From an uncultured Chloroflexia bacterium (lineage in GTDB: Bacteria; Chloroflexota; Limnocylindria; Limnocylindrales; CSP1-4), in NCBI GenBank assembly GCA_963716025.1, contig CAVQSY010000041.1:6985-70984 (forward strand): a DNA stretch of 64,000 nt. Direction: 5' to 3'. Of the stretch, positions 4,312-64,000 are shown piece by piece (positions within the stretch are counted from its first letter, which is position 1; the number at the start of each line of letters is the position of its first letter). A program made the translations under genes and the position numbers. Below the pieces are notes generated by a model, which was not told where the DNA came from, made no database searches, and saw only the letters and a program-made list of their open reading frames with translations.

Positions 4312-5997
4312 ATGACCACCGAGACCGACGGCGCCGATCCCTCGGGCCCGCGCCCCGTCCGCGCCCCCCGCGGCACGACCCTGTCCGCGAAGGGATGGCA
4401 GCAGGAGGCGGCCCTGCGGATGCTGATGAACAACCTCGACCCCGAGGTCGCGGAGAACCCCGACGAGCTGGTGGTCTACGGCGGGACCGGGCGCGCGGCC
4501 CGCAGCTGGGAGGCGTTCGACGCCATCGTCCGCGAGCTCCGCCGCCTCGAGGACGACGAGACCCTGCTGGTCCAGAGCGGCAAGCCCGTGGCCGTGTTCC
4601 GGACTCACGAGTGGGCGCCGCGGGTCCTGATCGCCAACTCCAACCTCGTCGGCAAGTGGGCGAACTGGGATCACTTCCGCGAGCTGGAGCGGCAGGGGCT
4701 GATGATGTACGGCCAGATGACCGCGGGGTCCTGGATCTACATCGGCACCCAGGGGATCCTCCAGGGCACCTACGAGACCTTCGCGGAGCTTGCCCGCCAG
4801 CATCACGACGGGACGCTGCACGGGACCGTGACCCTGACCGCGGGCCTCGGTGGGATGGGCGGCGCCCAGCCCCTTGCGGTGACGATGAACGAGGGCGTGT
4901 GCATCGCGATCGAGGTCGACGAGCACCGGGCCCAGCGGCGGCACGAGATCGGCTACGTGGACCGGCTGACGCACTCGCCCCAGGAGGCGCTGGCGATGGC
5001 CCGCCAGGCGGCAGCGGCCGGCGAGGCGGTCTCCATCGCCCTGGTGGGCAACGCGGCCGAGATCGAGCCGATGTGGGCGAAGGCCGGCGAGCAATTCGAC
5101 GTGGTGACGGACCAGACGTCGGCGCACGACGCGCTGGCCGGGTACGTGCCCGCCGAGATCTCGCTCCACGACGCGCACGTGCTCCGGATCTCGCAGCCGG
5201 ATGCCTACATGGAGCGCTCGATGCGGTCGATGGCCGAGCATGTCCGGGCGATGCTCGTTTTCCAGGAAGCCGGCGCGGTCGTGTTCGACTACGGCAACAA
5301 CCTTCGGGCGCAGGCGCAGGAGGCGGGTGTCGAGCACGCGTTCGACTACCCGGGCTTCGTGCCGGCGTTCATCCGCCCGCAGTTCTGCGAGGGCCGAGGC
5401 CCGTTCCGCTGGGTTGCCCTGTCGGGCGATCCCGCGGACATCCGGCGGACCGACCGGGCGCTGCTCGAGCTGTTCCCCTCCGACCGAGGCCTGCGTCGCT
5501 GGCTGGAGCTGGCCGAGGCCAAGGTGCCCTTCCAGGGCCTGCCGGCGCGGATCTGCTGGCTGGGCTACGGCGAGCGGGCGAAGGCCGGCCTGGAGTTCAA
5601 CCGGCTCGTCGCGTCGGGCGAGGTCAAGGCGCCGATCGTGATCGGGCGCGACCACCTGGACTCGGGGTCCGTGGCCTCGCCCAACCGCGAGACCGAGGCG
5701 ATGCTCGACGGCTCCGACGCGGTCGCCGACTGGCCCCTGCTCAATGCCCTGGTCAACACTGCCGCCGGGGCGACCTGGGTGTCGATCCACCACGGTGGCG
5801 GGACGGGGATCGGCTACTCGCAGCATGCGGGTATGGTGGTGGTGGCCGACGGCACCGAGCTCGCCGCCCGCAAGCTCGAGCGGGTGCTCACGAGTGATCC
5901 GGGCATGGGCGTGGTCCGCCACGTGGACGCGGGCTACGAGCGCGCGATCGAGGTCGCCCGCGAGCGCGGCGTGCGAATTCCGATGCTCGACCGCTGA
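4312..5997 (+). CDS. hutU: urocanate hydratase
   Basis: 561-aa ORF with the characteristic urocanase sequence throughout (NAD-binding region, ...[10 protein letters not shown]...); sits between hutH and hutI. Confidence 0.9.
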
Positions 5998-29250: not shown

Positions 29251-31200
29251 GTGGCGACAGACCCCCGGCACGAGAAGGGGACGAGCAGAACCGTGACTGA
29301 GATCGGGAGCGTGCTGGGCGGCCGCTATCGCCTGGTCGAGCTGCTCGGCCAGGGAGGCATGGCGACCATCTTCCGGGCGCGGGACGCCCAGCTGGATCGT
29401 GACGTCGCCGTCAAGCTGCTGCGCGCCGAGCTCGGGCGGGACCCGGACTTCCTGGCCCGCTTCCGCGACGAGGCCCGGGCTGCCGCCTCGCTCAACCACC
29501 CGAACATCGTGTCCGTCTTCGATTTCGGCGAGGAGGCATCCGGCCCGTACATCGTGATGGAGCTCATCGACGGCCAGGACCTGGCATCGATGCTGCGCGA
29601 GAACGGCCCGCTCGCACCCCGCCAGGCCACCAGGGTCGCCGCCGAGGTCGCCAAGGCGCTCCACGCGGCCCACGTGCGCGGGATCGTCCATCGCGACGTC
29701 AAGCCGTCGAACATCCTCGTCGGCCGCGACGGGCGGGTGAAGGTCGCGGACTTCGGGATCGCCCGTGCCCTCGCCGAGTCACAGTCGACCTCGCCCGGCG
29801 TCACGATGGGCTCGGTCCACTACTTCAGCCCCGAGCAGGCCCGCGGCGAGGCTGCCACTCAGGCGTCCGACATCTACGCCCTCGGGATCGTCCTCTACGA
29901 GGCGCTCACCGGCCAGCGTCCGTTCTCCGGCGATGGGGCGGCATCCGTCGCCCTGGCCCGCCTGACCACCACGCCCCCGCGACCCTCGGCGCTGCGAGCG
30001 GGCACACCGGTCGAGCTTGACCGGATCGTGCAGCGGGCGATGGCCCTCGACCCGGCGGACCGGTTCGCATCCTCGGCGTCCATGGCGAGTGCCCTCGAGG
30101 GCTGGCTGTCGGACCCGGCGGCGGCGCAGCCCTCGACGACCGCTGCCGGCGGGGCCACCGCCGCAACCCGCACCGTGGCCTCCGCGCAGGCTCGCCAGAA
30201 CGCCGTGCCCTATGCGGCCGACGCCTACGCACGGTCCGCGCCGCCCACCCCGGTCACCACGCGGGGGACGCCGCCGCCGCCCCCCGGATCCAGCTTTGAC
30301 GGTGACGATGGTGGCGGCTCCGGCCCCTGGGCCTGGATCGCCGGCCTGATCGGGCTCGTCATCCTCGCCATCGTCGGCTTCCTCGTGTTCCAGATGCTCA
30401 CCGGCGGCGGAGATGCGTCGCCCTCCGCCAGCCCGTCCGCGTCCGCGTCGGAGTCGGCATCGGCCGGGACCGTGAGCGTGCCCAGCTTCGTCGACCTCAC
30501 CATCGCCGACGCTCAGTCGCAGGCGGATCTGCTCGGTATCCGGCTGGTCATCGCGGGGACCGAGGAGCGCACGGACATCGATCCCGACATCGTGCTCACG
30601 CAGGAGCCGCCCGAGGGGACCTCGATCGCCGAGGGCGCCGAGGTCAGGATCACCATCTCCCGGGGTCCCACCTCCGTGGCCGTGCCGGACATCCGGACGA
30701 GGCCGGAGAACGAGGCGCTCCAGCTCATCGTCACCGCGCAGCTCTCGGTCGGCCAGAAGACCACGGCCTTCGACCCGACCATCCCGAAGAACACCGTCAT
30801 CTCGCAGAGCCCGAGCCCGGGCATCCTCGTGGCGCTCGGCACGCCGGTCGACTACGTGGTGTCCGCCGGCCCCGAGCCGACGCCGTCACCGACTCCAAGT
30901 CCCACGCCGTCACCGACTCCAAGTCCCACGCCGGCTCCGACCCCGACCCCGACGCCCGCGCCGGTGAACGTCGGCGACTACCAGTGCGTGACGGTCGAGG
31001 TGGCCACGAACCTGATCGATGCCGACGGCTTCGCCCTGGGTACGGTGACCTCCTCGCCGGCGGGCACCAGCCCGGTCCCGCAGACGTGGATCGTGATCGA
31101 CCAGACGCCCAACCCGGGGGTGAAGCGCCCACTCGGGACCGCGATCAACCTCGTTGCCGCCGACCCCGCCGACCCGGCCACCGTGGCGGCCTGTCCCTGA
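29251..31200 (+). CDS. Ser/Thr protein kinase with extracellular PASTA domains (PknB-like)
   Basis: Hanks kinase core (GGMATIFRA..., HRDVKPSNIL, DFGIA), then a TM segment and PASTA-like repeats separated by a PT-rich linker. Confidence 0.85.
   Translation: MATDPRHEKGTSRTVTEIGSVLGGRYRLVELLGQGGMATIFRARDAQLDRDVAVKLLRAELGRDPDFLARFRDEARAAASLNHPNIVSVFDFGEEASGPYIVMELIDGQDLASMLRENGPLAPRQATRVAAEVAKALHAAHVRGIVHRDVKPSNILVGRDGRVKVADFGIARALAESQSTSPGVTMGSVHYFSPEQARGEAATQASDIYALGIVLYEALTGQRPFSGDGAASVALARLTTTPPRPSALRAGTPVELDRIVQRAMALDPADRFASSASMASALEGWLSDPAAAQPSTTAAGGATAATRTVASAQARQNAVPYAADAYARSAPPTPVTTRGTPPPPPGSSFDGDDGGGSGPWAWIAGLIGLVILAIVGFLVFQMLTGGGDASPSASPSASASESASAGTVSVPSFVDLTIADAQSQADLLGIRLVIAGTEERTDIDPDIVLTQEPPEGTSIAEGAEVRITISRGPTSVAVPDIRTRPENEALQLIVTAQLSVGQKTTAFDPTIPKNTVISQSPSPGILVALGTPVDYVVSAGPEPTPSPTPSPTPSPTPSPTPAPTPTPTPAPVNVGDYQCVTVEVATNLIDADGFALGTVTSSPAGTSPVPQTWIVIDQTPNPGVKRPLGTAINLVAADPADPATVAACP
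30881..30928 (+). repeat. perfect 24-bp tandem duplication inside the PASTA-kinase PT-linker
   Basis: CGCCGTCACCGACTCCAAGTCCCA occurs twice back to back, encoding PSPTPSPT PSPTPSPT. Confidence 0.7.
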
Positions 31201-53964: not shown

Positions 53965-55350
53965 ATGACCGCACGGATCCGCCCCTCGCTCGCGCTCGCG
54001 CTCGCGCTCGCGCTCGCGCTCGCCGCCTTCCTCGGTGCGTGCGACGTGCTGCCCAGCCCATCGCCGCCACCAACCCTCCGGACCGACTCCGGGACCGCCG
54101 GACCGCTCGGGCCGGAGGCCATCTCGGCCGCGATCGGCTCCCTCGACGGGCTGGCGTCCTATCGCTTCGTGGGCTCGACGGCGGAGGGGGACACGGGCGT
54201 CTCCGAGACCCGCGGGACCGTGGTCAACGGGGAGGTGCGGCGGACGCGGATCGCCTACAGCGCCGACGGCGCTCTCGCGGGGGCCACGATCACGATCGCC
54301 AGCCGGACCTGGGTGCGCGTTTCCGGTTCCACGTACCAGGAGCAGGACGACTCGGGTGTGGACGACAACGACTGGGTCAATCCGGTTGCCCGCCTGCTGG
54401 ACCCGTGGTCGCTGGGGATCACGGTCGTCGAGGACCTGGGTCTCGAGCCGTTGAGCGGGGTGGACGCCAGGCACCTTCGAAGCTCCATCGCCGCCGGAGA
54501 CGTCGTCGACGATGACGGGCTGCCGGTTGGGAACGGCTTCAGCGGGACCGTGGACGCCTGGATCGCCGTCGACGGCGGACACCTGGTTGCGGCGAGCGTC
54601 GTCGGCACCGAGGCCCTGCCCGGCGTCGATGCGACCGACCCCGCTCCCAGCCCCGTGGCGTACCGGCTGGACATCGTCGTCGAGGGGGTCGACGACCCGG
54701 CCAACGTCATCGAGGCGCCTGTGGCGGGTGCGGCCACGCCGGCTCCCGTGGACGACCCGGTGGCGATCCGGCTGATCAGGGACATCCGCGACGGCCAGGC
54801 AGCACTCAATTCGTACGTCTACTCGATCACGTCGAGCATCGCCGGCTTCGACATCACCTCGAGGCTGACCGTCGTGAATCGTCCCGTGGCTGCGGCGCAG
54901 GTGGAAACCGACGGGGTCTCGGGGTTCGAGGGCACCACGATCCTCGCCGTCGGCGACGACACCTGGTCGCGAACCGGCTCGGGCGCCTGGCAGCCCGGCC
55001 GCCCGGGCGACGAGCCGGCCTGCGGGATCGGTGCCGACGCAACCTCGGACCCGGCGCCGTGCACCCTCGCCCGCCTGGTGGACATCGGGGCAAGCATCCG
55101 GACCATGCGCAGCACGTTCGCCGTGGTCAGCACCAACGAGCGCACGGCGGGGATCGACGTGACCCACCTGCGCAGCGAGGCCGGCGTGCGCCAGGGCGAG
55201 GATGTCATCGCCGGCACCCGCGACGTATGGATCGCAAACGACGGCGGCTATCTCGTCAAGGATGTGTTCACCGGGCTCGAGATCTCGTTCCAGGCCGTGA
55301 TCGGCCGGGTCAACGACCCGCTGAACCGCCTCCTGGCACCCACGCGCTGA
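53965..55350 (+). CDS. lipoprotein, unknown function
   Basis: MTARIRPSLALALALALALAAFLGAC has a signal peptide and lipobox; 461 aa, beta-rich. Confidence 0.6.
   Translation: MTARIRPSLALALALALALAAFLGACDVLPSPSPPPTLRTDSGTAGPLGPEAISAAIGSLDGLASYRFVGSTAEGDTGVSETRGTVVNGEVRRTRIAYSADGALAGATITIASRTWVRVSGSTYQEQDDSGVDDNDWVNPVARLLDPWSLGITVVEDLGLEPLSGVDARHLRSSIAAGDVVDDDGLPVGNGFSGTVDAWIAVDGGHLVAASVVGTEALPGVDATDPAPSPVAYRLDIVVEGVDDPANVIEAPVAGAATPAPVDDPVAIRLIRDIRDGQAALNSYVYSITSSIAGFDITSRLTVVNRPVAAAQVETDGVSGFEGTTILAVGDDTWSRTGSGAWQPGRPGDEPACGIGADATSDPAPCTLARLVDIGASIRTMRSTFAVVSTNERTAGIDVTHLRSEAGVRQGEDVIAGTRDVWIANDGGYLVKDVFTGLEISFQAVIGRVNDPLNRLLAPTR
53985..54022 (+). repeat. hexanucleotide microsatellite (CGCGCT)x5 inside the lipoprotein signal-peptide coding region
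   Basis: ctcgct cgcgct cgcgct cgcgct cgcgct cgcgct cgcc encodes (LA)n; unit loss or gain is in-frame. Confidence 0.7.
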
Positions 55351-58853: not shown

Positions 58854-59561
58854 GTGGCCACCATGAACGACACCGAGAAGCGACGAGCCAAGCGCCGGCG
58901 CAAGGCCGGCAAGGACTACCGGACCTGGGACCTGGGCAACGGGGTGGTCCAGGCCACTCCGGAGGCGGTGCTCCGGGCGATGGGCGGCCTGCCGCCGGAC
59001 CTCGAGTGGGAGGTGATGGCGCCAAACGTGATCCCCATCCTCCCTCGGCGGCGCCCGATGCCGTCCCAGGCCGGCGAGCCGTTCCGGGTCACCCTGCCGC
59101 CCGGCGTTCCCACGGGGTTCGGGATCGACATCGGCCCCGCATTCCTCGTCATCGGGGAATCGCTGCTCGGATCGTGGCCGGTCGGACCGGCCGAGCTCGT
59201 GGCCATGGCCCTGGAGAACCTGCGGACGCGGATGGCCCCGGTCCGGGCGCGGGATCTCATCCACCAGCGCTTCGAGGGCGTGCCGGCGCGGGTCCTCCAG
59301 TCCGGAGTCGGGTGTGCCTCGGCGCTCGTTCTCGCGCCGGACGAGCTCCAGCGGATCTTCGGACATCAGCCCCAGCTCCTGGTGGCGCCGATGCGGGACA
59401 TCCTGATCTCGATGCCATTCGACGTGGACAGGGGGCTCGCCGCGTGGCTCAACGAGGAGTTCGCCACCCTGGACCCCAACGGGCTGGATCTCGACGCGTT
59501 CGCGCTCGAGAACGGAGACCTCCGCTACGAGGCGCTGCCCATGCGGGGACGCCTCGACTGA
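58854..59561 (+). CDS. hypothetical protein
   Basis: 235-aa ORF with a basic N-terminus (MATMNDTEKRRAKRRRKAGKDY...); no recognisable domain. Its 3' end overlaps the tail of the convergent LarA-like ORF. Confidence 0.4.
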   Translation: MATMNDTEKRRAKRRRKAGKDYRTWDLGNGVVQATPEAVLRAMGGLPPDLEWEVMAPNVIPILPRRRPMPSQAGEPFRVTLPPGVPTGFGIDIGPAFLVIGESLLGSWPVGPAELVAMALENLRTRMAPVRARDLIHQRFEGVPARVLQSGVGCASALVLAPDELQRIFGHQPQLLVAPMRDILISMPFDVDRGLAAWLNEEFATLDPNGLDLDAFALENGDLRYEALPMRGRLD

Positions 59562-60897
59562 GGGTCGTCATCGCCGCCCGCGATCCCCGGACGCCGACGG
59601 GTCGCCTCAGCCCGCCGCGAGCTCGTCGTCGACGAACATGCCGGTCGCCGTCGAACCCGATGGCTCGTGGCTCACCGATCAAGGCGCAGTGGCCGGTGGC
59701 GAGCACGTCGTGCAGGGCGGGCTCGCTGACCAGCAGCACGGACAGGTCCTTGGTGCTGCGGGCGCGAACGATCCGCGCTTGGCCGGGGGTGACCTGCACG
59801 CTCGACGCGAGGGCGATCCCCAGCGCATCCCGGTCCGAGTCGACGGTGAGCGGCAGCCTCGCGCCCGCAATGGCCTTGGCTGTGACGCTGTTGGTGTAGG
59901 TGATGCGCTCGTCGAGGGCCGCAACGGCCCGTCGCAGCGCCACGTCGGCGAAGCCGATCCCGTTCGCGTTGCCCTCGCTCGCCGGGGTCAGGCCGCGGAC
60001 GATGATGCGCCCGATCCGGGGGCCCGACTCGGTGGAGCCCGCCTTGGCCCGGCCGATGACGTTGGGGTCCATGCCGGTGCCGCTGATGTCCTTGCCGATG
60101 AGGTCCAGCACCAGCACGTCGATCCGGTCAATCGGAAGGCGTGCCATCCGGGCACGCGCCTCGGTGAGCAGCTCGGCCTCGCGGACCTCCATTCGCCCCG
60201 CGGGGATCGCCTCCACGCGGGCCAGGTGGCCGAAGCCGTCCTCGACCATCGCCACGCCGAACCCGACCGGCGCCGCGGCCATCGTGTGGCGGGCGACCGC
60301 CGGGACAAGCTCCGCGAAGGCGTCGTAGCCCAGGTGGTGGAACGTGTCCGCCCCCCGCTGCTTGCCGAGGCCGATCGCGATCATCTTCAGCAGCCCGCTC
60401 TCGATCGGCCCCGCGAACCCGGTATGGGGCTTGACCCGATTGACCGGCACGATCAGGTCGGCGCCCTCGAACGCGTGCCGGTCGAGGTACACGGGCACGC
60501 CCGGGATCACCTCGCCCAGGTCCACGGTGTCCATCGATGCCCGGATCTCGCAGCCCATCGTCTCCGGGGTGATGCCATAGCCCGCGAGGACTGCCAGCTG
60601 GCCCTCCGGCGTCGCGCCCCCGTGGCTGCCCATCGCGGGCACGATGAACACGGTCGCGCCGGCCTCGCGGATGCTCCTCACCACCTCACCCACGATCTGG
60701 TCGATCCGGTCGATCCCGCGGCTGCCTGCCGCGACGCACACGCGCATGCCGGGGCGAACGGTGGGCAGGACGGGCCGCAGCGCCTGGCGGGTGGCCGCAG
60801 CGGCGTCGGGCAGGGCGAGATCCTCCAGCTCCTGGCGCACGGGCGCCCAGCGCGGGAGCGACTCGGTGGGGAACTCGGGATAGGCGCTGCCGGTCAT
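59449..60897 (-). CDS. LarA-like (DUF2088, nickel-pincer-dependent racemase family) protein; C-terminal end uncertain
   Basis: Start at MTGSAYPEF... (ATG 60895-60897). ...VAAGSRGIDRIDQIVGEVVRSIREAGATVFIVPAMGSHGG... follows the lactate-racemase-family pattern. The last roughly 60 aa are Arg-rich and overlap the convergent gene, so the true stop may lie earlier or in another frame. Confidence 0.55.
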   Translation of the reverse strand: MTGSAYPEFPTESLPRWAPVRQELEDLALPDAAAATRQALRPVLPTVRPGMRVCVAAGSRGIDRIDQIVGEVVRSIREAGATVFIVPAMGSHGGATPEGQLAVLAGYGITPETMGCEIRASMDTVDLGEVIPGVPVYLDRHAFEGADLIVPVNRVKPHTGFAGPIESGLLKMIAIGLGKQRGADTFHHLGYDAFAELVPAVARHTMAAAPVGFGVAMVEDGFGHLARVEAIPAGRMEVREAELLTEARARMARLPIDRIDVLVLDLIGKDISGTGMDPNVIGRAKAGSTESGPRIGRIIVRGLTPASEGNANGIGFADVALRRAVAALDERITYTNSVTAKAIAGARLPLTVDSDRDALGIALASSVQVTPGQARIVRARSTKDLSVLLVSEPALHDVLATGHCALIGEPRAIGFDGDRHVRRRRARGGLRRPVGVRGSRAAMTTLSRGVPAWAAPRSGGLRSRARTRRDPARWGPGWRTPR

Positions 60898-61008: not shown

Positions 61009-61779
61009 ATGACCAACCAGCCCGATCACGTGGCGGGTGGCCAGAGCGCCCCGCCTGTTCCTCCCGTTCCGATGCCGCCTCCGGTGGCGCCCGCCCCACC
61101 CCCGGCCGGGTCCGCATGGGGGCAGCCGTCGGCGATGACCCCCGCGGCCCGACCTCGCGGACCAAGGGGGACGAGCGGCAGGATCACGCTCGTCGTGCTC
61201 GGCGTGATCGTCGGTGTCGTGCTCGGCGCCAACATCGTGAACGCCGCGCTGCCGCTGCCGCAGGACCCCTCGATCGTGGACGCGGGACCCGGGATCCCGA
61301 GCGATCCCCAGCCGGTCGACGAGCCCCAGCCCAGCCCGGTCGAGCCCGGACCGGTGACGGCCGGCGACGCGGTGGAGGTTGGCGGCGGCTTCGTCATCTT
61401 CCCGCCCGATGGATGGACATCGGTGGGCAGCGAGGACGGCACCGTGCTCCAGAAGAACGGTGTGCTCATGATCGTCGCCGGCTTCCCGTGGGAGCAATCG
61501 GCCACGGATCTCGCGTCCGCCTACCGGGACGCCTGGTTCGAGGGGGGCCAGTTCACCGGTGACGACCCGGAGGCGGGAACGCTCGGCAACGGGGTTCCCG
61601 CAGCGGGCCTCAACTACACGGGCATCTGGAACGGGACCCAGGTCGACGGCGCGATCATCTCGGCGGCCGTCGCCGGGTCGGGGCTGATCATCAACATCGT
61701 GGGGCCCACCGGGGGCCTGAACGCGGTCAGCTCGGACCTCGACATCATTCTCGGCACCGTCCAGCACACGGGAGGCTGA
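61009..61779 (+). CDS. Pro-rich membrane-anchored protein
   Basis: MTNQPDHV...(Pro-rich)...RITLVVLGVIVGVVLGANIV (TM), followed by a globular C-terminal domain. Confidence 0.5.
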   Translation: MTNQPDHVAGGQSAPPVPPVPMPPPVAPAPPPAGSAWGQPSAMTPAARPRGPRGTSGRITLVVLGVIVGVVLGANIVNAALPLPQDPSIVDAGPGIPSDPQPVDEPQPSPVEPGPVTAGDAVEVGGGFVIFPPDGWTSVGSEDGTVLQKNGVLMIVAGFPWEQSATDLASAYRDAWFEGGQFTGDDPEAGTLGNGVPAAGLNYTGIWNGTQVDGAIISAAVAGSGLIINIVGPTGGLNAVSSDLDIILGTVQHTGG

Positions 61780-61780
61780 C

Positions 61781-63715
61781 ATGACCGTCCAACCCGCTCC
61801 CGTCGCCGCCGGTCCCGCCCCCAGGTGGGGCGAGCAGACTGGCTTCTTCCAGCGCCACCAGCCGGCGTTCTGGCTGTTTGTCGTCATCCTCGGGCTGACC
61901 AGCCTCGACTTCCTCTCCCAGCAGTTCCAGATGATCGCCGCCGAGCCCACGGCCTGGCTGGTCACGATCATCCTCCTGGTCCCGTACGCGATCCCCGTGA
62001 TCGCGATCATCTACTACCTCGACCTGTTCGAGCGCGAGCCGATCTCGATCCTGATCGCTGCGCTCCTCTGGGGCGGCATCGTCGCCACCACCCTGTCGAT
62101 GTACACGAACACGCCGCTCATGGAGGTGATCTTCAAGATCACCGGGGACCCCAACTTCACGAATGAATGGGCCGCAGCCCTCACCGCACCGTTCGTCGAA
62201 GAGCTGTTCAAGGGCCTCGCGGTCGTGCTCCTGGTCGCCATCGCCCGCAACGAGCTCGACGACGTCCTCGATGGCTTCGTGTGGGGCGCGATGGTCGGGA
62301 TCGGCTTCCTGCTGGTCGAAGACGTCATCTATTTCGTGCGAGCCGCCTCCGACTCGGGCTCGATTGCTGCCGTGTTCCAGATGTTCATGATCCGGATCCT
62401 CGGGGCCGGCCCCTACAGCCACTTCCTGTACACCGGGCTCGTCGGGATGGGGATCGCCTACTTCACCGTGCGCCGCGACAAGCCGGAGGGAACCCGTCTG
62501 CTGACGGCCGTCGGGCTGGTCGCGGCGGGCGTCGGCGCCCACTTCTTCTGGAACTCGCCGCTCCTGTCGGAGCTGCTCGGCGACGGCGACAGCCTCGTCG
62601 GCTGGCTCATCTACGTCACGGCGAAGGGCCTGCCGATGCTGATCGGGCTGATCCTGGTCGTCCGGCTGGCGCGCCAGCGCGAGCGTCGCTGGTTTGCCAC
62701 CTTCACCTCGACCTTTTCTGACGACGGGTCGATCACGGCCCGCGAGGTTGCCGAGCTGAGCGGGCTCCGGTCCCGGCGGCGCGCCCGCAATGCCGCCGGT
62801 CGTGAGCGAGGTTCGGCTGGGAAGCAGCTCATGGGCCGGCTCCAGCGCGAGCAGATGGGCCTCGCGATGACCTTCAGCAAGCACGGCTCCGAGAGCCATC
62901 CCGAGGTTGCGCAGCGCATGGCCGAGATCGCAGCGCTGCGAGTGGAGTACGCCGCCCTCGGTTCGACCGCGCCGGCCGCCGCCGGCGGGTGGGTGGCTGC
63001 ACTTCCGGTCGCGGCGCCCGTGACGGGGCAACCCGCCGCGTGGGCCCAGCCGGCCCCGGTCGCCCAGCCGGCCCCGGTCGCCCAGCCGGCCCCGGTCGCC
63101 CAGCCGGCCCCGGTCGCCCAGCCGGCCCCGGTCGCCCAGCCGGCCCCGGTCGCCCAGCCGGCCCCGGTCGCCCAGCCGGCCCCGGTCGCCCAGCCGGCCC
63201 CGGTCGCCCAGCCGGCCCCGGTCGCCCAGCCGGCCCCGGTCGCCCAGCCGGCCCCGGTCGCCCAGCCGGCCCCGGTCGCCCAGCCGGCCCCGGTCGCCCA
63301 GCCGGCCCCGGTCGCCCAGCCGGCCCCGGTCGCCCAGCCGGCCCCGGTCGCCCAGCCGGCCCCGGTCGCCCAGCCGGCCCCGGTCGCCCAGCCGGCCCCG
63401 GTCGCCCAGCCGGCCCCGGTCGCCCAGCCGGCCCCGGTCGCCCAGCCGGCCCCGGTCGCCCAGCCGGCCCCGGTCGCCCAGCCGGCCCCTCCGCCCGTCT
63501 CGCACACCGCGCCAGCCTGGAGCCCCACCCATTCGGTGCCGGACGACGGCCTGGCTGCGTGGAGCGCCCCGAACCCGGCCTTGGCGCCGGTCGTGACGCT
63601 CGATCCCCACCTCGACCTGGTGGTGGTGGAGCGGGCCGGGGATTGGGCGAGGGTGGTCGCCGTCAACGGGTGGGCCGGCTGGGTGGACGCGCGGAGGCTC
63701 GTCCCCCGGGGCTGA
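61781..63715 (+). CDS. PrsW-family intramembrane metalloprotease with (PAPVAQ)24 linker and SH3-like C-terminal domain
   Basis: Multi-TM core with the EELFKG, SHFLYTG and HFFWN motifs of PrsW/CPBP-like proteases. The C-terminus has a 144-aa perfect hexapeptide repeat, then ...[32 protein letters not shown] (SH3b-like). Confidence 0.7.
63046..63477 (+). repeat. 24 perfect tandem copies of an 18-bp unit (CCGGCCCCGGTCGCCCAG)
   Basis: Read directly from the sequence; it encodes (PAPVAQ)24 in the protease frame and (PAGPGR)24 in the antisense frame, with no variant units. Confidence 0.9.
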
Positions 63716-63904
63716 ATCCACGGACCCGGTCCGCGAGGGCCGGCTCGTGAGGCGGGTCGCGACCCGGGTCGCGTCGCACCTCGCACGAAGCCGGCGGCGC
63801 GGCGCACGAAGCCGGTTCGGCGCCCAGGGAGTCCGTGCATTCCAGCACCGACTCGGACCTGTCCGCGCTCGCGCGGCGTGCGATGGTCGCGAAACGGCAC
63901 AGGA

Positions 63905-64000
63905 GTGCCAGCGGCCGTCAGCGCGTTCGACCTGACCAAGATCGGGATCGGCCCGTCGAGCTCGCACACCGTCGGGCCGATGCGGGCCGCGCGGCGGTTT
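63905..64000 (+). CDS. sdaA: L-serine dehydratase, N-terminal fragment (continues beyond window)
   Basis: [32 protein letters not shown] matches the iron-sulfur L-serine ammonia-lyase N-terminus (...[21 protein letters not shown]...). GTG start is uncertain. Confidence 0.5.

Follow-up and report, generated by a model that had tools for sequence, protein, structure and literature searches.

A probable recent expansion of an 18-bp coding minisatellite in the disordered tether of a PrsW-family protease from an uncultured Chloroflexia bacterium

In the ClfA and Sdr proteins of Staphylococcus aureus, region R is made of in-frame repeats of an 18-bp coding unit that form a low-complexity Ser-Asp spacer, and its strain-variable length sets the reach of a terminal binding domain. 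The alpha C and Rib proteins of group B Streptococcus contain large repeats that are identical at the nucleotide level within the gene, and these arrays expand and contract in frame. Extended and flexible Ala/Pro-rich tethers, cytoplasmic or periplasmic, occur between the domains of 2-oxo-acid dehydrogenase E2 chains and, as a Pro-rich spacer, in TonB. Here we describe a nucleotide-perfect tandem array in a 64,000-nucleotide stretch of DNA from an uncultured Chloroflexia bacterium (contig CAVQSY010000041.1, positions 6,985 to 70,984; hereafter, the window), where it lies within a gene for a PrsW-family membrane protease with a C-terminal SH3-like domain. With a probability of about 0.65, we consider the array to be a genuine in-frame coding minisatellite, the product of a recent expansion of an old, short repeat in the disordered tether of the protease.

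The array consists of 24.8 copies of the unit GCCCAGCCGGCCCCGGTC. Tandem Repeats Finder (TRF) reports a period of 18 bp with 100% matches, 0% indels and a score of 892, and a direct base-by-base comparison gives the same interval, 446 bp in length, as the maximal perfect period-18 run (Table 1). The original prediction, made from the DNA letters and a list of open reading frames (ORFs), had recognized that the units are identical at the nucleotide level and placed 24 of them at 63046-63477; this interval lies inside the array, while its register is not aligned to the codons. The peptide encoded is AQ-(PAPVAQ)24-PAP, in frame with the ORF at 61781..63715, and its (PAPVAQ)24 portion corresponds to aa 424-567 (63050..63481). 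The array thus has the form of a coding minisatellite, that is, head-to-tail units of some 10-100 bp in frame inside a gene, with 0 mismatches. In scale it is unrivalled within the 64 kb, the second-best TRF score being 110, and no additional copy of the unit with up to three mismatches is present on the plus strand of the window outside the array. Codon preference does not explain the uniformity: given the peptide and the genome's own codon usage, the chance for a unit to use exactly these six codons is 0.034, and that for 23 further units to make the same choice is around 1e-34; the identity of the units has to come from descent or from an artefact.

The unit is 89% G+C, against 72.6% for the genome, and contains no stop triplet in any frame; all six reading frames of the array are therefore open, and this openness has no biological meaning. 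The (PAGPGR)24 frame originally described as an open antisense frame is, in fact, the +1-shifted frame of the sense strand, forming the (PAGPGR)n part of the plus-strand ORF 62989..63750, and the antisense ORFs over the array read (LGDRGR)n and (GWATGA)n. An overlapping or antisense gene was considered and rejected, the unit being free of stops and the alternative ORFs having no support from homologues, and these frames are best seen as an artefact of composition. An array of canonical SH3 ligands was likewise rejected: the prolines of PAPVAQ fall at positions i, i+2 and i+6 and form no PxxP core.

The copies are young, whereas the unit is old. No third-codon position differs among the array units (0/144), which sets the 95% upper bound for their age at about 0.02 substitutions per site, whereas four-fold sites have diverged from the nearest relatives by 0.33-0.49 substitutions per site; the expansion or homogenisation is thus very recent, at least 15-fold younger than the nearest sampled split. 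At the homologous position, the relatives have imperfect arrays with periods of 18, 36 or 54 bp (7.4 copies at 65% in locus L001, 8.3 copies at 80% in L002 and 4.9 copies at 87% in L011), which encode short, degenerate runs of the hexapeptide QPAPV[A/V]. The TRF consensus units of L001 and L002 are identical to GCCCAGCCGGCCCCGGTC at 17 and 16 of the 18 positions, indicating that the unit is ancestral and the amplification alone is new. We suggest that one ancestral hexapeptide unit was amplified to the approximately 24.8 identical copies in the lineage of the window, long after its split from all sampled relatives, and that this probably happened by replication slippage and/or unequal sister-strand recombination. 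Tandem arrays lengthen and shorten through replication slippage and unequal sister-strand exchange, and perfect homology over 446 bp suits both. Instability through slipped hairpins was rejected as an explanation, the DNA folding of six units being no better than that of shuffled sequences on either strand (z 0.09 and -0.97). The antisense strand of the array, on the other hand, contains 12 non-overlapping tandem canonical G-quadruplex (G4) motifs (G3+N1-7 x4), 12 of the 26 found in the window, with a density of about 27 per kb in the array and 0.22 per kb elsewhere in the window. Minisatellites that form G4 are known for their instability in other systems (PMC2673046), and the motifs may be a contributor to any instability of the array.

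The gene around the array starts with an ATG 1 nt past the stop of the upstream gene, with a GGAGG 8 nt upstream of it, and the 644-aa protein has approximately 280 homologues. The PrsW family (PF13367) scores 141.2 bits on aa 86-278 (62036..62614), well above its cut-off of 23.5 (E 3.9e-41). The motifs published for PrsW are EExxK, FxxxE, H and HxxxD/N (PMC4602095, PMC12943098), and the protein has E140-E141-x-x-K144, F176xxxE180, H214 and H254xxxN258; in the 101-sequence family alignment, E140, E141, K144, H214, H254 and N258 do not vary, and F176 and E180 show a conservation of at least 90%. The sequence thus places the protein among the intramembrane proteases of the PrsW family, with the full set of catalytic motifs. 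It is not an orthologue of the Bacillus subtilis PrsW, as it scores only 36.9 bits against the cut-off of 225 for the corresponding equivalog (NCBIfam NF033739), and no sigma or anti-sigma gene was identified beside prsW. An AlphaFold2 (AF2) model of the full protein, built on the family alignment, has a mean predicted local distance difference test score (pLDDT) of 79.7 and consists of a confident helical membrane domain, a helical tail, an unstructured region at aa 393-580 and a confident C-terminal beta domain. When this full model was searched with Foldseek, all hits were SH3 domains matching the C terminus, and no solved structure was matched by the membrane domain. The helices of the tail span aa 320-326, 329-368 and 374-392 in the model, and R332, R336 and G344 are invariant among the 101 sequences.

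To see on which side of the membrane the tether lies, we placed eight transmembrane (TM) helices using the AF2 model and hydropathy and counted the Lys and Arg residues (K+R) of each loop across the family. On the side of the N terminus the loops of a protein contain 12.1 K+R on average, compared with 3.0 on the opposite side, and the difference has the same direction in 101 of 101 sequences. Most basic of all are RRDKPEGTR, in the loop after TM6, and the stretch following TM8, where the next hundred or so residues (aa 296-392) average 18.9 K+R against 11.6 Asp and Glu. In the AF2 model, neither a further TM segment nor a signal sequence is found between TM8 and the SH3-like domain. The EE motif is located at the start of TM4, directly past a predicted outside loop. 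The positive-inside bias, the basic tail after TM8 and the lack of a later TM segment together lead to a predicted cytoplasmic C terminus and, in terms of the model, the tether and the SH3-like domain are probably cytoplasmic, with the N terminus inside, eight TM helices and the C terminus inside. The published PrsW core has seven TM helices, and a Leptospira PrsW is described with a PilZ domain at its C terminus and two TM helices more (PMC12943098); the topology predicted here agrees with both. The suggestion that the SH3b-like domain binds the cell wall looks unlikely under this prediction.

The tether itself gets pLDDT values of about 41-65, with about 45-60 for the array segment, and no secondary structure in the AF2 model (aa 393-580), and the idea of a long, flexible Pro/Ala linker is supported by both composition and predicted disorder. 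Measured from the helical tail to the SH3-like domain in 99 full-length family members, the tethers are 15-185 aa long (median 43), that of the window being the longest; the residues are predominantly A (32%), P (24%), V (11%), G (8%) and Q (8%). The tether of the window also contains two Trp motifs, GGWVAA and QPAAWAQPA, of which the latter adjoins the array. As a separate observation, a Trp motif with the consensus AAP[A/G]WGQPA occurs in 39 of the 99 PrsW tethers, up to six times in each, and its count rises with the length of the tether (r 0.77); the motif is seen at 62963..63049 of the window (aa 395-423) and in the tethers of P0026, P0027, P0044, P0052 and others.

Based on its composition, the predicted disorder, the location between folded parts, the in-frame units and the tolerance of different lengths, we think that the array would act as a passive, extended and flexible spacer between the basic helical tail and the SH3-like domain, both predicted to be cytoplasmic. 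Lengthening of the tether would widen the reach of the SH3-like domain and lower its effective local concentration at the protease. By the scaling law of disordered chains, a tether of 185 aa would have its ends about twice as far apart as one of the median 43 aa, corresponding to a larger volume searched and a roughly ten-fold lower effective local concentration. Changes in copy number would then shift the tether in steps of six amino acids and keep the frame. The exact length is probably under weak selection, given that the family tolerates everything from a tether of 15 aa down to complete loss of the module. It was originally proposed that copy number is likely hypervariable between strains and that linker length would be phase-variable; the large differences in tether length seen here are differences between species. 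As the unit is six codons long and the array lies inside the coding sequence on both sides, copy number can only alter the length and there is no on/off switching; the term may be fitting only loosely, in the sense of a reversible length polymorphism.

At the level of fold and family, "SH3-like" appears to be the right label for the C-terminal domain, owing to the Foldseek matches and the Pfam signal in relatives. Modelled alone, aa 576-644 form five strands with a pLDDT of 93.7, and every top match of a Foldseek search against PDB is an SH3 domain. By TM-score, bacterial SH3 domains come out best, with 0.79 for 9a7d_A, a model of the YrvJ amidase, and 0.73 for 2krs of Clostridium perfringens (root-mean-square deviation 2.1 Å); both are extracellular SH3b domains and were found in both Foldseek searches, and the search with the full-length model also matched the SH3b of NlpC/P60. 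In a domain alignment of 22 sequences, SH3_4 is recognized in 18 relatives (best E 6e-7) and SH3_3 in 17, whereas the copy of the window stays below the SH3_4 cut-off of 24.1 with 12.9 bits for the whole protein and 17.7 bits for the isolated domain. A profile search of the domain against PDB sequences gave only a marginal match to the Abl2 SH3 (E 0.43). With PF13367 on one side and the SH3 fold seen by AF2 and Foldseek on the other, the original placement of the array between a PrsW protease and an SH3-like domain is borne out. The domain itself begins with PAW-PTH. Elsewhere, an Actinomycetota metagenome-assembled genome (MAG) has at least three SH3-like copies in tandem, with Pro/Ala-rich linkers between them and a hydrophobic region following (L013, 3959..5419), a Burkholderiales MAG has one copy before a multi-TM region (L014, 2..514), and the 136-aa protein P0125 has a single copy after two TM helices.

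The relatives are common in Chloroflexota MAGs labelled as Limnocylindrales-type or "uncultured Chloroflexia", many of them coming from the Nanopore-based Microflora Danica set (PMC12313526). The closest overall is P0007 with 86% protein identity, and the nearest syntenic loci, L001 and L040, have DNA identities of approximately 84-85%. Searches for a conspecific found none among the GTDB species-representative genomes (best 81% protein identity), among the JGI metagenome contigs (best 67%) or, using the C-terminal 89 aa against proteins and aimed at fragments on short contigs, among protein sequences (best 78%). Within this sample, the tether changes rapidly. Independent near-perfect expansions are found in L041 (1144..1385 of JGI Ga0376481_034629; P0016), with 6.7 copies of a 36-bp unit at 97% encoding (QPQPVAQPAPAA)n, in L011, with 2.4 copies of 36 bp at 100%, and in L004, with 2.9 copies of 15 bp at 100%. 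The nearest relatives have nothing in common at this position: the tether of L001 has a short degenerate array, that of P0001/L042 is 16 aa long, and L040/P0007 has lost it. In L040/P0007, the PrsW is 406 aa in length with 87% amino acid identity in the core and ends after the helical tail: the prsW stop directly abuts the start of serine dehydratase (5100..5400 of ENA ERZ25039549 contig_27466), leaving no tether, no SH3-like domain and no trace of the 189-bp spacer. The C-terminal module is thus dispensable in at least one lineage, and a comparison of the sequences points to a tether region of fast turnover and weak constraint. Frame switches in or near the tether or the core are seen in L010 (4342..5628), L011 (3749..5599), L012 (3749..5611), P0062, P0063, P0084 and P0087, mostly Nanopore soil MAGs, and in these homologues the SH3-like domain falls in another frame. 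The switches are probably sequencing indels in G+C-rich repeats, and some may be real pseudogenes.

Recent expansion, homogenisation and an assembly problem were the options named from the outset, and we consider this the right set. An artefact, meaning that the copy number and/or the perfect homogeneity was made by the assembler or the consensus step, seems unlikely to us. Perfect identity over 446 bp is just what a collapsed or re-expanded repeat is expected to look like, the window protein has no exact match on record in an exact-protein look-up, the nearest relatives are Nanopore soil MAGs (PMC12313526) of which several are frameshifted around the tether, and tandem repeats are documented as a source of assembly errors (PMC6868369). 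However, when 5.2 kb of the locus are aligned with both L001 and L040, all eight indels are intergenic and none is coding, and homologous arrays and independent near-perfect expansions exist in unrelated assemblies, including the JGI metagenome contig of L041. Furthermore, short-read k-mers cannot cross a 446-bp array of an 18-bp unit, and the location of the array within a long contig would imply spanning reads. The retained frame and the intact downstream domain, which folds confidently, argue in the same direction with less force, as any multiple of 18 bp would do likewise. The genuine minisatellite that we favour has points against it, too: its copy number and homogeneity rest on one assembled sequence, with the collections searched giving no conspecific match; the frameshifts in the homologues listed above mark the tether region as error-prone in assemblies; the best structural likeness of the domain is to extracellular bacterial SH3b, which sits uneasily with the predicted cytoplasmic location; and the passive spacer is a default choice, the results being compatible with selection on length.

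Selection of the last kind would make the tether an adaptive and rapidly mutable element, a contingency-type locus acting on reach and not on an on/off state, which would adjust the way in which the SH3-like domain couples a partner to the protease. The recurrent independent expansions and the 12-fold range of lengths across the family would fit such tuning, and copy-number changes of tandem repeats can take place in high-G+C bacteria at rates of 1e-2 to 1e-3 per chromosome (PMC12817950); the instability of G4 minisatellites (PMC2673046) could add to it with 12 of the 26 G4 motifs of the window lying on the antisense strand of the array. Yet the module is dispensable in a close relative and the tether goes down to 15 aa, suggesting weak constraint rather than tuning, the in-frame units provide no switch, and the comparisons are between species only; we find this reading distinctly improbable. 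Less credible still is the model in which the tether reaches outside and holds a cell-wall-binding SH3b domain away from the membrane protease. The best TM-score matches are, admittedly, extracellular SH3b domains (9a7d_A, 2krs, NlpC/P60), and the relatives match Pfam SH3_3 and SH3_4, but eight TM helices and the positive-inside bias in 101/101 sequences put the C terminus inside, the stretch from TM8 to the domain holds no further TM segment and no signal sequence, and a segment of about 100 aa with some 19 K+R after TM8 would be very hard to export. Finally, the array could be a DNA-level element, either a G4/i-motif array or a recombination hot spot, kept for a nucleic-acid function. While the twelve tandem G4 motifs of the antisense strand are dense in comparison to the rest of the window (about 27 vs 0.22 per kb), relatives keep the period and the peptide motif at the protein level while using different codons, hairpin folding is no better than in shuffles (z 0.09 and -0.97), and the G-runs simply follow from Pro/Ala/Gly codons where the genome has 72.6% G+C, making this explanation barely tenable.

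The gene upstream of prsW encodes a 256-aa protein without a Pfam or NCBIfam match, consisting of a Pro-rich N-terminal tail with an AWGQP motif, the basic patch RPRGPRGTSGR, a single TM helix and a domain on the extracytoplasmic side. It has homologues in L001-L005, L007-L010, L015-L019, L026 and L040 and is syntenic in most related loci, and this single-pass membrane protein may be a partner of the PrsW protease or its substrate. The Trp motif is also present in its N-terminal tail (61009..61140), and one may imagine a joint reading, a "reach rheostat", in which the tether is the fast-evolving part of a cytoplasmic adaptor system not yet described: AAP[A/G]WGQPA would be recognized by the SH3-like domain, both in the tethers of PrsW and in the cytoplasmic tail of the tightly linked upstream protein, and G4-promoted changes in array length would tune the delivery of the partner to the protease or its shielding from it. 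We hold this to be highly unlikely. No co-variation is seen between the SH3 domain and the Trp motif of the partner: L040 has the motif without the SH3 and L010 the SH3 without the motif. On the other side, the L-serine dehydratase gene (sdaA), cut by the window end, forms the right boundary of the locus; in L040 it abuts the truncated prsW. Further upstream, on the minus strand, 59449..60800 resembles the N-terminal domain of a LarA-type lactate racemase, on the basis of a weak Lar_N (PF09861) annotation that the syntenic gene has in L040; the 853-aa ORF listed in that region is an over-extension typical of high-G+C DNA. Other repeats noticed are a small perfect tandem repeat (CGCTCG)x6.2 at 53987..54023 of the window, a 24-bp unit in 2.6-3.3 copies with 85-94% identity at 30866..30944 and, downstream of prsW in L010 (6216..6464), a 17/35-bp array of 4.7 copies at 94% followed by more 17/34-bp repeats.

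Table 1. Features of the locus, in window coordinates.
Feature	Position	Strand	Details	Basis
Conserved upstream partner gene (candidate)	61009..61779	+	256 aa	Sequence, start, synteny
PrsW-family protease gene with C-terminal tether and SH3-like domain	61781..63715	+	644 aa	ORF list, Pfam, homologues
Membrane domain	61862..62716	+	aa 28-312; 8 TM helices	AF2 helices with pLDDT >90; topology by K+R counts
Conserved basic helical tail after TM8, predicted cytoplasmic	62738..62956	+	aa 320-392	AF2, conservation
Whole disordered Ala/Pro/Val/Gln tether	62963..63517	+	aa 395-579; 185 aa, of which 144 aa from the array	AF2
Perfect tandem array	63044..63489	+	18 bp x 24.8, unit GCCCAGCCGGCCCCGGTC	TRF and direct base check
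C-terminal SH3-fold domain	63518..63712	+	aa 580-644	AF2, Foldseek, Pfam in relatives
L-serine dehydratase gene start, cut by window end	63905..64000	+		PF03315 SDH_beta, E 2.5e-12

Overall, the main value of the array is practical and cautionary: it is a long and nucleotide-perfect coding minisatellite from an uncultured, high-G+C soil lineage, and such arrays pass through assembly only with long reads. It marks a tether where the relatives repeatedly expand, contract, show frameshifts in their assemblies or delete the whole module, and it should be a good marker for strain typing or for assembly quality in this lineage. The tethers of the family, in turn, provide a natural series of linker lengths for a membrane protease with a predicted cytoplasmic SH3-like domain, and the correction of the predicted topology moves the expected function from the outside, at the cell wall, to the inside, in the cytoplasm.

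Among the known systems, the protease shares its Pfam family and the four conserved motifs with the B. subtilis PrsW (YpdC, the site-1 protease of RsiW) and differs from it by an additional N-terminal TM helix, the basic helical tail of approximately 100 aa, the long tether and the SH3-like domain. PilZ domains bind the intracellular messenger c-di-GMP. One of them is found in LIC_20173 of Leptospira interrogans, where, as in the window, a PrsW membrane domain is followed by an extra C-terminal soluble domain (PMC12943098); there, however, the fused domain is PilZ rather than SH3-like, two TM helices are added and no repeat tether is present. By analogy, LIC_20173 is a precedent for a regulatory or adaptor domain fused to the C-terminal end of PrsW. 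For the array itself, the closest parallel in unit size is region R of ClfA and Sdr, which likewise consists of in-frame 18-bp units and forms a low-complexity spacer; the units of region R are, however, degenerate, and its Ser-Asp spacer lies outside the cell, running through the cell wall, whereas the Pro-Ala-Val-Gln spacer of the window is predicted to be cytoplasmic. Units identical at the nucleotide level inside a gene are shared with alpha C and Rib, but those are far longer than 18 bp and form the folded domains of a surface antigen under immune selection, not a disordered tether. The tethers of E2 and TonB come close in letting a small domain move relative to a core and in composition, Ala and Pro making up 56% of the PrsW family tethers; yet, those linkers are 20-70 aa in length, are not made up of nucleotide-identical units and serve a defined purpose, as swinging arms or to span a distance. 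In Mycobacterium tuberculosis, another high-G+C genome with tandem repeats, copy number changes often and short reads obscure the variation (PMC12817950); the functional cases there are promoter repeats that alter expression, in contrast to the coding, in-frame repeat of the window. Set beside these systems, the array looks striking and is nevertheless a conceptually ordinary coding minisatellite, not a new kind of system.

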